This document shows, in pieces, positions 10,900 to 63,321 of a stretch of DNA of 64,000 nt. The position numbers were made by a program, and so were the translations under genes. Source of the DNA: Escherichia phage UP19. The notes below the pieces were generated by a model. That model saw only the letters and a list, made by a program, of their open reading frames with translations. It was not told the DNA's origin and did no database searches. Within the stretch, counting starts at the first letter, position 1. Each line of letters opens with the position of its first letter. The DNA lies in sequence record OX638288. The stretch is one strand, 5' to 3'.

Positions 10900-11442
10900 A
10901 TGAGTTTATATGATAACCTTATATCAAATATTGATTGGTTTAAAAATAGTGGTCTTTCCCATGAAACCAATTCAGTTCTTTATAGAATTCGCCAAGACCT
11001 AGGCTATTCAAACGATTTCTTAAGCAGAACATCTAGCCGTGGCGATACTACCAAATTACCTTTTATTTTTGCTTTAGCTGAAGACCTTTCTTTTGAAGAT
11101 GCTTTGGAAATTATTGACGTAAATCTGACTATTCAACGAGTGGAATTCGCTGGACTACGTTATTCAGTATATTCTTTAAATGAGAGCGATGATTGTGTGC
11201 TTCTTAATATGGCAGATGATGATTACCATTTAGTATGCTATGTGGCTTTAGAAAATGGTGATGTATTTGGAATGGTCGACCGTCGACCATCTTACACTGA
11301 TATTAAAAATTATGATAAAGCCGAGCTTGGTATCTTAACTGCTGAGTACACATTAGAAAGTCGTAAACAACAACGGAAGCTTAATCGCTTTATTGCTGAA
11401 TGCCGTGAATACGCTAAAGAGGTTCAAAATGGAACGGCCTAG
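10900..11442 (+). CDS. hypothetical protein
   Basis: 180 aa; SD ggaggagagg upstream; C-terminal ...LNRFIAECREY motif shared with two other ORFs. Confidence 0.55.
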   Translation: MSLYDNLISNIDWFKNSGLSHETNSVLYRIRQDLGYSNDFLSRTSSRGDTTKLPFIFALAEDLSFEDALEIIDVNLTIQRVEFAGLRYSVYSLNESDDCVLLNMADDDYHLVCYVALENGDVFGMVDRRPSYTDIKNYDKAELGILTAEYTLESRKQQRKLNRFIAECREYAKEVQNGTA

Positions 11443-11782
11443 TCTTTCATCGCATGTTTATCAATTGGCTGAATATGATATTGCTATTTCCTTATTCACG
11501 GGAATTGTCACAGGTATGCTCGGCGGTCTGGTTGGTCTGGTAATGACCACAGTTATGGCTGCAATCGAAGGAGTCATGCCTATTGAGATGGGTTTCTATA
11601 TGATAATCGCTCCGGCTGTCGTGGCTTATTTTATCCCTCTTGTGTATGATATTTGCCATACAAATGCTTTGAATGCTCCCATCCGTAAGAGATATGCTTT
11701 AGAGATGGCTAATTATAATGAGTATGTAAAACAAACCAAACGTAATGACCTTGAAACCTTTATTAAGGAATGTAAATCATGA
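11429..11782 (+). CDS. small membrane protein
   Basis: ATG 11429; 117 aa; two TM helices; ends ...LETFIKECKS. Confidence 0.5.
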   Translation: MERPSLSSHVYQLAEYDIAISLFTGIVTGMLGGLVGLVMTTVMAAIEGVMPIEMGFYMIIAPAVVAYFIPLVYDICHTNALNAPIRKRYALEMANYNEYVKQTKRNDLETFIKECKS

Positions 11783-12069
11783 ATAAAATTGAAATTGAAA
11801 TCCCTGAATACAACGACGAGAAATCTGCAGAAAAAGCTATCTATGCTCTTCTGAATAAAGTAGATACCATCGAACATGAATGTGAAGCTATTGCTGATAA
11901 GTACGGTATTCAATTCGGAACAGGTGATTATGGCTCAGGACGTACATACTACCCTGTTGGTTATGAATGCTCCCAGTGGTTTAAAGATGAAATTGAAAAC
12001 AATGGTGGTGAAGTTGAAAATGGCGTCGTTACAGTTGGTGCCTGGATCTCCTCTTCAGCATTATGCTAA
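11779..12069 (+). CDS. tandem paralog family member A (C-terminal W-x-SSS-x-C)
   Basis: 96 aa ending ...GAWISSSALC; first of five consecutive paralogs. Confidence 0.6.
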   Translation: MNKIEIEIPEYNDEKSAEKAIYALLNKVDTIEHECEAIADKYGIQFGTGDYGSGRTYYPVGYECSQWFKDEIENNGGEVENGVVTVGAWISSSALC

Positions 12070-12078
12070 GGAAACGCT

Positions 12079-12360
12079 ATGATGAATGATAATCATAACC
12101 ACCCAGAGCTTCTGGCCGCAGTAAAAGAAATTCATGAAGCTATTCGTCGTGCCGAGGAAATTGCAGACAAATATGAGACTCATTTTAATATATACCCTGC
12201 TCGCGGTATGGGCGGTGACTATTATTCTCCTGGCGCCCTGAAAGCTGACCTAGCCCACTGGGAAGAAGATGGTCATCCTGAATGGGCTATTGTTAATACT
12301 CATGACTATACAACTGACCTGGAAAATGGTGGTTGGGTGTCCTCTTCTTCTGAATGTTAA
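12079..12360 (+). CDS. tandem paralog family member B
   Basis: 93 aa ending ...GGWVSSSSEC; shares IADKY and GDY motifs with member A. Confidence 0.6.
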   Translation: MMNDNHNHPELLAAVKEIHEAIRRAEEIADKYETHFNIYPARGMGGDYYSPGALKADLAHWEEDGHPEWAIVNTHDYTTDLENGGWVSSSSEC

Positions 12361-12369
12361 GGAAATATT

Positions 12370-12567
12370 ATGTCTCGTGAATTAGATTGTGCAATCCGTA
12401 CTGCCGCCGCGGCTATTGAAAACGTTATCCAGATTTGCAAAGAAGAACGTGAAGAAGCTGATATCTATATCGATGGTGTTCGTGACCTGGAACGACATAT
12501 CACGCTTTACAATGGTTGTATTACAATTAGTGGTACCTCTTGGGTGTCCTCCTCTTACGAATGCTAA
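12370..12567 (+). CDS. tandem paralog family member C
   Basis: 65 aa ending ...TSWVSSSYEC. Confidence 0.6.
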   Translation: MSRELDCAIRTAAAAIENVIQICKEEREEADIYIDGVRDLERHITLYNGCITISGTSWVSSSYEC

Positions 12568-21258: not shown

Positions 21259-21615
21259 ATGATTAAACAGATGACTATAGCGCTTATGTTTATTGCTCCG
21301 GGAGTATTAGCATCACAGGTTGATGATACAAATAATTCAATTGTCGAGTATGCCACCCGTACAGCAAAAGATTATTGTCATCCGAGTAATACTGAATGTG
21401 TTATTGAATTCAGTTCAAAAATAACAGCTGCTTTTAAAGATGGACAGAACGACGTCGAGCATCGCCGAATGAAAGAGAAAACTCTTTCTAAAAGATACGA
21501 GCAACGTCTAAACGTTACTGAATGTGTTCCATCTGATAAAAAGTACAAAGAAATGTGCGCGTCTATGGTAGACAGACTCGTTGACTCTTACAACCGAGGG
21601 CTAAACTCTAAATGA
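21259..21615 (+). CDS. secreted/periplasmic hypothetical protein
   Basis: 118 aa; N-terminal signal peptide. Confidence 0.5.
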   Translation: MIKQMTIALMFIAPGVLASQVDDTNNSIVEYATRTAKDYCHPSNTECVIEFSSKITAAFKDGQNDVEHRRMKEKTLSKRYEQRLNVTECVPSDKKYKEMCASMVDRLVDSYNRGLNSK

Positions 21616-22079
21616 TTATTGATTATATTAAGGGCGATATCGTCGCCCTGTTTCTTCAAGGCAATAATGTTGCACACGGGTGTAACTGCTTTCACACAAT
21701 GGGTTCAGGTGTAGCAGGTCAATTGGCTAAGGCGTATCCACCTATTCTTGCTATCGATAAAACCACTTATTTAGGTGATATAGCAAAACTTGGAACATAT
21801 ACCCAAGCCACAGGTAATAATGGACAAATTTGCTATAATTTATACACCCAATACGAACCAGGCCCTAATCTTGATTACGGTGCTTTAGTAAACTGTATGA
21901 TAGAATTAAACCATACTTCAAAAGGTCTTTTGTTTAAACCGAGAATTTATATTCCTCGCATTGGCTGTGGTATTGCTGGTGGTGATTGGGACAAGGTTTA
22001 TCAATTGATTAATTTGTTTACTCCTGATATTAATTTAGTGGTGGTAGATTATGAAAGCTCATTATCCGCATCCGTTTGA
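21612..22079 (+). CDS. macro-domain protein (ADP-ribose binding/processing), tentative
   Basis: 155 aa; KGDIV...VAHGCNCFHTMGSGVAGQLA...IPRIGCGIAGG parallels the GDIT...NAAN...GGGVA...SAGIYG macro-domain layout. Confidence 0.55.
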   Translation: MIIDYIKGDIVALFLQGNNVAHGCNCFHTMGSGVAGQLAKAYPPILAIDKTTYLGDIAKLGTYTQATGNNGQICYNLYTQYEPGPNLDYGALVNCMIELNHTSKGLLFKPRIYIPRIGCGIAGGDWDKVYQLINLFTPDINLVVVDYESSLSASV

Positions 22080-22263
22080 CCCTAAAAACAAAGCGGAAAT
22101 TATTCGCCGCTGGACCGAAACCCGAGTAACTAAATGCCCTATAAAAAGTCATCACAATACTGATAAATGGTATATAGGTGAATATGTTGAATATACTTTT
22201 ATAGATAAAAATAAACGTAAACAGTATGTAGAAGAATACTGCTTAAAGGTGCAATGGTTATGA
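22051..22263 (+). CDS. hypothetical protein
   Basis: 70 aa ORF. Confidence 0.45.
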   Translation: MKAHYPHPFDPKNKAEIIRRWTETRVTKCPIKSHHNTDKWYIGEYVEYTFIDKNKRKQYVEEYCLKVQWL

Positions 22264-22466
22264 GCCAAACCCGAATTCTTAAAACGGCTAAATGTGAAAA
22301 ATGTGAATGGCCGGTAATCGCAGCTTTATGCAACGATGAAATGGAATGTGAATTTGATTACTGGTGGTACTGTTCTAATAAAGGATGTTCTAATCATAAG
22401 GGTGAAGGTTTTCATTCCGGTTATTGCGAACATCCTAAATTTGTGCGATATGGTGAACCTAAATGA
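22254..22466 (+). CDS. Cys-rich small protein (putative zinc-binding)
   Basis: 70 aa with CEKCEW...CNDEMEC...CSNKGCSNH...C. Confidence 0.5.
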   Translation: MVMSQTRILKTAKCEKCEWPVIAALCNDEMECEFDYWWYCSNKGCSNHKGEGFHSGYCEHPKFVRYGEPK

Positions 22467-59873: not shown

Positions 59874-60167
59874 ATGAAAAAGTTATTAATCGCAGCAATC
59901 CTTACAGTAGCATCATGTGGCACGGCTCCGGTAACGGCCGGTTATGACGCAGACCTTTGTGAGTGGTCTATGACTGCCGATCAAGAAGCAGTTGAGCATC
60001 AGATTTATGCCGATATCATGAACATCACTAAACGTGACCGTCCTGATATGGTTAAAGAAGTATCTGACCAATTGGCTTCTAGCGGTGTTATGCAGTATAA
60101 CTATGTTCTGTACTGTGATGCTAATTTCGATAACAAAAATATCGTTAAAGAGGTGACAGGTGAATAA
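59874..60167 (+). CDS. sp: periplasmic lipoprotein, spackle-like by size and position
   Basis: 97 aa; signal peptide with lipobox ASCG; about 1 kb upstream of gene 61, where T4 sp (61.3, 97 aa) lies. Confidence 0.45.
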   Translation: MKKLLIAAILTVASCGTAPVTAGYDADLCEWSMTADQEAVEHQIYADIMNITKRDRPDMVKEVSDQLASSGVMQYNYVLYCDANFDNKNIVKEVTGE

Positions 60168-60600
60168 GATTAACAGAAATTTGGTTATCAAAAAACTTCG
60201 TTGTAAAAATCCAAATGCCCAGGCATACAGAATGTATTGGAGCGACGACCACCAGTACCTGGGCTATTTTCTTGTTGATAGTGATGATAGGATTGTATTT
60301 GCCCATAAACTTCTTAATAGAGAATTAAATCACTGGCAAGAACTTATTGCTGTTAAGTCTAAATTATTTTCGCGCAATACAATACACCAATTGGTTTATT
60401 TTTTCGCTGATGGTTTTCCTGACAAGGTTGAATTTGAAGGATTCGAATTTAAAGATATCCTCCCGGACAACGAATTGAACGACTGCGTTAATATGGATAT
60501 CCCTAGCAAGTATATCAAAAATAGCCTGTTGAAAATTCTGGAAGCCCCAGTTTATTCAATTGACGACCAGATTTTTAATGCCTTTATGAATCGAGGTTGA
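60160..60600 (+). CDS. hypothetical protein
   Basis: 146 aa ORF. Confidence 0.5.
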   Translation: MNKINRNLVIKKLRCKNPNAQAYRMYWSDDHQYLGYFLVDSDDRIVFAHKLLNRELNHWQELIAVKSKLFSRNTIHQLVYFFADGFPDKVEFEGFEFKDILPDNELNDCVNMDIPSKYIKNSLLKILEAPVYSIDDQIFNAFMNRG

Positions 60601-62430: not shown

Positions 62431-62524
62431 GTTATCCTCCTGTTAAATTAATATTTATTCGCTTTAATCTAGCAGTTTATAATTATCTAACTTACTAACA
62501 AATGAATTGATAAGGAAAAATATA

Positions 62525-63046
62525 ATGGCTCATTTTAATGAATGTTCTCAACTTATTGCCGGTGCCGATAAAGCTGAAGAAGCTTATTTTAATGCTCTGA
62601 TTCACGAAGATAAAGACCCTCTACAGGTTATGCTTGATATGCAGAAATCTTTGCAGGTTCGTTTAGCTAAAGATAAGCCTGAATATAATCGTCATCCTGA
62701 TGATTTGGCCACTGCGGGTGAAGTTGTCGATTGGCTTCGCAACCAGAAAGATTATATTGATGACGAATTCCGTGAACTTCTGACTTCTCTTGGTGGTATG
62801 AGCAATGGTGAAAAAGATGCATCTGCAGTATGGAAGCCTTGGAAAGCTCAACATGCTGAACGTCGTGAAACCCTGATTAACGATTTGTCTCCTGAAGACC
62901 AGCTCGAAATTAAATTCGAAATGATTGATATTCTGCACTTTGTTCTGAATATGTTCCAGGGTCTTGGACTGACCGCTGAAGAAATCTTTAAACTGTATTA
63001 CCTGAAAAATGCCGAGAACTTTGCTCGTCAAGACCGAGGTTATTAA
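62525..63046 (+). CDS. 56: dCTPase/dUTPase gp56 (MazG-like NTP pyrophosphatase)
   Basis: ATG 62525; MAHFNECSQLIAG...DPLQVMLDMQKSLQVRLA...EIFKLYYLKNAENFARQDRGY; like T4 gp56. Confidence 0.95.
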   Translation: MAHFNECSQLIAGADKAEEAYFNALIHEDKDPLQVMLDMQKSLQVRLAKDKPEYNRHPDDLATAGEVVDWLRNQKDYIDDEFRELLTSLGGMSNGEKDASAVWKPWKAQHAERRETLINDLSPEDQLEIKFEMIDILHFVLNMFQGLGLTAEEIFKLYYLKNAENFARQDRGY

Positions 63047-63048
63047 GT

Positions 63049-63056
63049 TATAAATA
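63049..63056 (+). promoter_or_regulatory. late promoter TATAAATA for soc
   Basis: Exact TATAAATA about 32 nt before soc ATG. Confidence 0.6.
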
Positions 63057-63087
63057 CACCTGTAATTAAACAACAAAGGAGTTAATT

Positions 63088-63321
63088 ATGGGTGGTTTCG
63101 TTAATATCAAAACCTTTACGCATCCAGCTGGTGAAGGTAAAGAAGTTAAAGGTACTGAGGTTTCAGTTCCGTTTGAAATCTATTCAAATGAGCATCGTAT
63201 TGCCAATGCTCATTATCAGACTTTCCCTTCGGCCGTTGCAGCCTATACTACTGTAGTGACTGATGCAGCCGATTGGCGAACTAAGAACGCGGCGATGTTT
63301 ACGCCAACTGATATTGTTTAA
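63088..63321 (+). CDS. soc: small outer capsid protein Soc
   Basis: 77 aa ...FVNIKTF...EVSVPFEIYSNEHRIANAHYQTFPS... like T4 Soc; late promoter upstream. Confidence 0.85.
   Translation: MGGFVNIKTFTHPAGEGKEVKGTEVSVPFEIYSNEHRIANAHYQTFPSAVAAYTTVVTDAADWRTKNAAMFTPTDIV

Follow-up and report, generated by a model that had tools for sequence, protein, structure and literature searches.

A Dhakavirus orthologue of T4 tk.4 (adfM) encodes a predicted Gln-type macrodomain, probably acting against DarTG2

The best-studied relative of the gene described here is T4 tk.4. In a HIDEN-SEQ screen reported in November 2025, in which a T4 transposon library was grown on DarTG2-expressing E. coli, tk.4 was the single significant hit; a clean T4 tk.4 knockout was DarTG2-sensitive, and the gene was dispensable on plain K-12 and important only with DarTG2 (bioRxiv 10.1101/2025.11.20.689424). 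The gene was renamed adfM (anti-DarT factor Macrodomain), and removal of ADP-ribose from DNA was proposed as its activity (bioRxiv 10.1101/2025.11.20.689424). T4 without the NADAR enzyme AdfN loses its resistance to DarTG1 but keeps its resistance to DarTG2, in which the toxin's target base is thymine, not guanine; the resistance that is kept fits T4 tk.4 as the DarTG2 factor. The name AdfM was given independently to a second phage protein, PhiKZ gp104, which in vitro removes the ADP-ribose that DarT2 places on a TNTC oligonucleotide, an activity that the substitution N23A weakens (Cell Reports 2026; PMC13309987).

Among cellular macrodomains, human TARG1 hydrolyzes both thymine-ADPr DNA and uracil-ADPr RNA. 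SCO6735 of Streptomyces coelicolor, a chromosomal and DNA-damage-inducible protein, has no Lys/Asp pair and carries Gln85 at the position of the catalytic lysine, yet it outpaces DarG and TARG1 in cleaving the thymine-ADP-ribose made by DarT; it has no activity on guanine-ADPr, and it rescues E. coli from DarT. Mutation of the glutamine (Q85A/E) abolishes activity. The proposed mechanism is water-mediated, with the water bound by the Val25 backbone and the distal ribose oriented by Gln85. The hallmark of the SCO6735 subclass is a mobile loop that exceeds those of DarG and TARG1 by five residues and carries K89. Within the literature searched, we found no enzyme assay of any protein of the Tk.4 clade.

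We analysed a 64,000-nucleotide stretch of Escherichia phage UP19 (sequence record OX638288; hereafter the window). An ATG-to-TGA ORF at 21612..22079 (+), 155 aa plus stop, encodes a stand-alone macrodomain. The closest genome is that of Escherichia phage JS10 (Dhakavirus, Tevenvirinae), with DNA 97.2% identical, and 97.5% identical across the 6-kb stretch around this gene, which in JS10 is named tk.4. The gene order in the window, all on one strand, is regB - vs.1 - vs - tk.4 - tk.3 - (small ORF) - tk.2 - tk; with the small ORF set aside, this order agrees with the JS10 and T4 annotations. The tk.4 start codon and the vs stop codon share an ATGA (21612..21615, +), likewise in T4 and JS10, and the 3' end overlaps the start of tk.3 (22051-22263) by 29 nt (22051..22079, +), as is also annotated in JS10. 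The tight same-strand packing, together with matches to Pfam (below), to PHROG 335 (E 7.7e-66) and to homologues, makes this clearly a real gene.

T4 Tk.4 (NP_049723.1) aligns with the window protein over 155/155 residues with 54% identity and 72% positives (E 3e-64). By sequence comparison, the window gene is thus the Dhakavirus orthologue of T4 tk.4, lately renamed adfM. An earlier note on this DNA, made from the sequence alone, had named no T4 counterpart; T4 tk.4 sits in the same place between vs and tk.3, so the gene is not novel. For many years the T4 annotation has pointed to its macrodomain nature ('contains A1pp phosphatase motif'); this was already known. The gene belongs to the routine, widely conserved accessory genes of T-even phages, its T4 orthologue has a published counter-defence role, and the DarT-type role that the earlier note had considered agrees with that T4 genetics. 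The two proteins share their 155-aa length, the vs and tk.3 flanks upstream of tk, and the invariant residues, including the T-Q pair discussed below. They differ at 46% of residues: T4 Tk.4 reads IGAGIGKGNW where the window protein has the family consensus IGCGIAGGDW, and its loop before strand 4 is longer by 3 residues. The anti-DarTG2 phenotype itself was observed with T4 Tk.4.

The surroundings of tk.4 merit brief description. The gene vs (21259-21615, +), a valyl-tRNA synthetase modifier gene, is translationally coupled to tk.4. In T4 it was the gene most strongly depleted in minimal medium versus LB (HIDEN-SEQ, bioRxiv 10.1101/2025.11.20.689424), so that the coupled neighbour of tk.4 is conditionally important too. 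Between tk.3 and tk.2, a 70-aa Cys-rich ORF (22254-22466, +; CEKCEW...CNDEMECEFDYWWYCSNKGCSNH) is labelled 'hypothetical' in JS10, and the T4 annotation lists no equivalent there; its product may be a small zinc-binding protein. A promoter and terminator scan of 19.5-24 kb returned 11 promoter-like sites, fewer than in shuffles (14.8), and so carries no usable information on transcription units.

The assignment to the macrodomain fold, which the earlier note had made from motifs at 21612-22079, is borne out by each of the methods applied, including the profile search and structure prediction that it had proposed. The Pfam Macro profile (PF01661) matches at 29.3 bits, above the gathering cut-off of 22 (E 9.3e-7), over profile positions 2-117 of 118. 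An AlphaFold2 model built with 60 homologues is confident (mean pLDDT 94.6, pTM 0.89), with disorder in the last five residues only, and predicts a three-layer alpha/beta/alpha fold with a mixed central sheet that can be superposed on solved macrodomains. In a Foldseek search of the PDB, the top group comprised the TARG1, Poa1p, Bt_1257 and DarG macrodomains (E 1.7e-9 to 2e-7, TM about 0.75), and a Tk.4-family profile run against PDB sequences found Bt_1257 (2e-19), TARG1 (1e-17), SCO6735 (3.5e-16), Poa1p (9e-14) and DarG (about 1e-11). These rankings place Tk.4 in the TARG1/DarG/ALC1-like class, not with MacroD or PARG. The motif reading in the earlier note therefore holds in part: its three quoted peptides are present (residues 7-11, 20-39 and 114-124) and the glycine-rich loops are there, but the layout that it invoked is that of the MacroD class, whereas the protein is TARG1/ALC1-like. 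The MacroD motifs, an N-x(6)-G-G-[VLI]-D catalytic loop and a G-[VIA]-[YF]-G loop 2, are absent from Tk.4.

Four elements define the predicted active site. K7-G8-D9-I10-V11 (21630..21644, +) forms the N-terminal strand and a turn with a G-D pair, and aligns with the KGD of TARG1 and Bt_1257; G8 is found in 115 of 120 homologues, and position 9 is D or N in 117 of the 120. In macrodomains the G-D pair adjoins the adenine of ADP-ribose. Loop 1, H22-G23-C24-N25 ... M30-G31-S32-G33-V34-A35 (21675..21716, +), has H22, G23, N25, G33 and A35 invariant across the Tk.4 family, with N25 aligned to N23 of PhiKZ AdfM and G23 to Val25 of SCO6735. Loop 2, I114-P115-R116-I117-G118-C119-G120-I121-A122-G123-G124 (21951..21983, +), is by alignment and conservation the glycine-rich diphosphate-binding loop; P115, G118 and G120 are invariant, A122, G123 and G124 nearly so, and the matching segment reads PRIGCGLAGG in Bt_1257 and SCO6735 and PRIGCGLD in TARG1. 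Both loops of the predicted ADP-ribose cleft are present and invariant.

The remaining element, T79-Q80 (21846..21851, +), lies in profile alignments at the position of the catalytic lysine of TARG1 (K84) and DarG (K80). Residue 80 is Gln in 119 of 120 homologues, the remaining one being gapped; among cellular relatives, 78 of 80 have Gln there and 75 of 80 carry the full H-N-T-Q-G-G-A signature. The Tk.4 profile pairs TQ with the TK of TARG1, DarG and PhiKZ gp104. When Tk.4 was aligned with SCO6735 by hhalign (probability 98.9%), Q80 fell on Gln85, the Gln of N-M-I-G-Q, and H22-G23-C24-N25 fell on H24-V25-C26-N27. The second catalytic residue of TARG1, D125, corresponds to Ala122 in Tk.4. A six-sequence MAFFT alignment misplaced the central strand of SCO6735 and Bt_1257 and matched their G-Q to one lying further upstream in Tk.4; it was dropped because the profile-based alignments agree mutually and with the published structure-based alignment. 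On these alignments, the active site of the Tk.4 clade is not DarG-like, having an invariant Gln where DarG and TARG1 have the catalytic Lys, and Tk.4 reads as Gln-type with a short mobile loop. We found no description of this combination in the literature searched.

Comparison with each characterized relative brings out what is shared and what is not. SCO6735 (PDB 5E3B) and Bt_1257 (PDB 2FG1/2AFC), both Gln-type and ALC1-like, are 24-29% identical to Tk.4, and SCO6735 shares with it the Gln at the catalytic-Lys position; Tk.4, however, lacks their mobile-loop extension (a gap of 5-6 residues) and both of the DNA-positioning lysines of SCO6735, S32 replacing K34, and K89 falling within the missing loop. 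Human TARG1/OARD1 (PDB 4J5R/4J5S), the top Foldseek match (E 1.7e-9, TM 0.76-0.84), is similar in size and likewise has a short third loop, but is only 21-24% identical, and its catalytic dyad K84/D125 is replaced by Q80/A122. Sequence similarity to yeast Poa1p (PDB 6LFQ), an ADP-ribose-1''-phosphate phosphatase, lies mostly in residues 3-93. DarG (T. aquaticus, 5M31/5M3E; M. tuberculosis, 5M3I) and PhiKZ gp104 have F-P-T-K with the catalytic Lys where Tk.4 has L-Y-T-Q. The C-terminal DarT-binding domain of DarG has no counterpart in the 155-aa, single-domain Tk.4, and whereas darG has a darT neighbour, the window gene is flanked by vs and tk.3.

The two phage proteins called AdfM also differ in their distance from DarG. 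Against M. tuberculosis DarG, PhiKZ gp104 scores E 9e-25 and Tk.4 E 2e-4; against the PADLOC DarG model they score 133 and 23 bits, respectively, and they are 21% identical to each other. Tk.4 reaches 20.6 bits against the DarG equivalog NCBIfam NF048014, far below its cut-off of 250, and over profile positions 110-143 of 338 only. By these sequence measures, T-even AdfM and PhiKZ AdfM are separate recruitments from different macrodomain subclasses.

Searching 5.8 billion proteins gave 337 relatives at E <= 1e-5, and tblastn matches to tk.4 occur in 2,731 of 50,697 deposited phage genomes. Bacterial relatives with the same signature, found at no fewer than 497 loci across many phyla, are stand-alone proteins of about 150 aa with 33-43% identity. 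A tblastn search with a single P. aeruginosa DarT2 query, from a divergent family, covered the surroundings of 80 cellular relatives out to 4 kb and found no DarT2 (best E 2.2), and clustering of the neighbouring ORFs at the 80 loci gave no family common to more than 8 of them. The neighbours that do recur are lineage-specific housekeeping genes and a few ADP-ribosylglycohydrolase-like and NAMPT-like genes. With no darT nearby and no recurrent neighbour, a toxin-antitoxin origin of the clade was dropped; capture of a DarG antitoxin does not seem to be its source. In Acinetobacter and Vibrio phages (H59-H61, H71), homologues with 36-42% identity adjoin nicotinamide phosphoribosyltransferase or ribose-phosphate pyrophosphokinase genes, and at two bacterial loci (L013 and L015) they lie beside NAMPT-like or ADP-ribosylglycohydrolase-like genes. 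Such NAD-salvage-type neighbours suggest that part of the clade may work in NAD/ADP-ribose metabolism.

Within the Dhakaviruses the gene itself is variable. In phage JS98 (L087) the 1.5-kb flanks are 99-100% identical to the window, but 21712-21888, inside tk.4, is only 53-75% identical, and the JS98 allele encodes 159 aa with 76% protein identity. This pattern of identity marks 21712-21888 as a local mosaic replacement affecting only the middle of tk.4. Other genes connected with ADP-ribose were also located. In the slot of adfA (T4 61.2, an anti-DarT1 inhibitor) the window has a 146-aa ORF (60160-60600, +) of which only the last 14 residues match T4 gp61.2, at 100%; the rest is unrelated to gp61.2, so a different gene apparently occupies the adfA position. 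The gene adfN (30.3) lies outside the window, which ends with the genes for gp56 dCTPase and soc (62507-63321). In JS10, modB and modA (JS10 11200-12438) are placed about 1.5 kb beyond the point corresponding to the 3' end of the window; from this layout, the genes with which the phage itself would write ADP-ribose lie just outside it.

The start of tk.4 also contains a G+C-rich hairpin with 8 bp and a 3-nt loop (AGGGCGAT-ATC-GTCGCCCT; 21631..21649, +), which a scan scored as terminator-like. It sits 20 nt past the vs stop codon, is followed by a T-rich run to 21657, and falls within codons 7-13 (KGDIVAL), using the rare codons GGC, GTC and GCC; its minimum free energy is -13.0 kcal/mol. The T4 hairpin is identical save for a loop base, and the structure is kept in many T-even relatives. 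In two of these (L093 and L094) two-sided changes, a G-C pair to A-T and a T.G pair to C-G, preserve it, and a more distant relative (L109; 43% protein identity, EGDLISL) has a different 7-bp palindrome followed by TTTTT in the same place. Resampling of synonymous codings gave the needed codon combination an expected frequency of 0.57%, with 4.2% folding as stably in other ways, and the local z-score is -2.0. The covariation score was reached by 4 of 500 shuffles, although according to the tool this control can be exceeded without structure. Rfam returned a sub-threshold snoRNA chance match only. With this moderate statistical support, the hairpin is a possible RNA element whose role is uncertain; candidate roles are termination or attenuation downstream of vs, stabilization of an mRNA end, and a brake on tk.4 translation.

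We consider it likely that the protein binds ADP-ribosyl-thymine on single-stranded phage DNA and hydrolyzes the N-glycosidic link by SCO6735-like chemistry, freeing replication. In such a scheme, the host toxin DarT2 would attach ADP-ribose to thymine in single-stranded phage DNA; Tk.4, as a stand-alone macrodomain from the pre-replicative region, would bind the thymine-linked ADP-ribose and cut the ribose-base bond; and the DNA, restored to a replicable state, would allow phage growth on E. coli that carries DarTG2. Gln80 would position the distal ribose, with a water held by the backbone, in place of the Lys-dependent route taken by DarG and TARG1. The missing catalytic lysine at first seemed to oppose a DarG-like activity, but the precedent of Gln85 in SCO6735 changed that, and it is from Q80 in place of the catalytic Lys, with A122 in place of the TARG1 Asp, that we infer SCO6735-like chemistry. 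As Tk.4 has neither the Lys of DarG and TARG1 nor the mobile loop or the K34 and K89 of SCO6735, neither characterized mechanism transfers cleanly. The T4 evidence for a DarTG2 role is a genetic phenotype reported in a preprint. With 54% identity to T4 Tk.4 and a central third that is swapped among Dhakaviruses, the specificity of the window protein could differ from that of T4. The weak similarity to DarG models and the NAD-salvage neighbours of distant relatives count against thymine de-ADP-ribosylation.

Those same neighbours, together with the legacy 'A1pp phosphatase' annotation and the similarity to Poa1p, would suit an enzyme acting on small molecules, either as an ADP-ribose-1''-phosphate phosphatase or as a hydrolase of soluble ADP-ribose derivatives, among them O-acetyl-ADPr, signals made in defence, or toxins. 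We regard this as unlikely. The 'phosphatase' name is a homology transfer, no NAD-salvage genes adjoin tk.4 in the window, and the only known consequence of losing the T4 orthologue is DarTG2 sensitivity. The substrate of Poa1p is a small molecule from tRNA splicing with no obvious source in T-even infection; T4 RNA repair (Pnkp/Rnl1) makes no 2'-phosphate, so ADPr-1''-P is not expected. Nor did we find evidence to support the Thoeris or other NAD-derived-signal roles that the earlier note had raised.

Catalysis might also be secondary, with DarT2 neutralized mainly by binding of the toxin or of its ADP-ribosylated product. Catalytically dead SCO6735 Q85A, DarG K80A and TARG1 K84A do inhibit DarT in vitro, SCO6735 most strongly, and the variable central segment of tk.4 in close Dhakaviruses could reflect co-evolution with a binding partner. 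We nonetheless think this improbable, since hundreds of homologues from phages and bacteria, with no DarT partner, keep the active-site residues unchanged, a pattern that favours selection on catalysis, and since a protein of only 155 aa has no counterpart of the domain by which DarG binds DarT. Lastly, Tk.4 might erase the phage's own Alt/ModA/ModB marks, including ModB RNAylation, and thereby time or limit host reprogramming. ModA and ModB are encoded in JS10 just past the 3' end of the window, and ADP-ribose linked to Glu/Asp of proteins is also a substrate of SCO6735 and TARG1. The T4 transferases, however, modify arginine, and this macrodomain class is not known to cleave that linkage; given also that T4 tk.4 matters only with DarTG2, we consider such a role very improbable.

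Beyond thymine de-ADP-ribosylation by the window protein, we put forward, tentatively and with rather less confidence, a broader proposal: that the T-even Tk.4/AdfM clade could make up a third subclass of nucleic-acid base de-ADP-ribosylases, so far undescribed, Gln-type but without the SCO6735 loop and DNA-clamping lysines. It would derive from stand-alone cellular macrodomains, not from DarG, and independently of the PhiKZ 'AdfM'. Its substrates could exceed the marks made by DarT2; because TARG1-like enzymes remove uracil-ADPr from RNA, a wider role on nucleic acids, for example on uracil-ADPr RNA, is possible. The swapped segment of tk.4 could record an arms race with DarT2 variants.

For annotation, the gene is correctly described as adfM/tk.4, an anti-DarTG2 macrodomain, and not as a 'phosphatase'. 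The name AdfM calls for caution, as it now stands on two proteins of unrelated subclasses. Judging by its predicted active site, T-even AdfM would be unable to use the Lys-dependent chemistry that a 'DarG-like' label implies.
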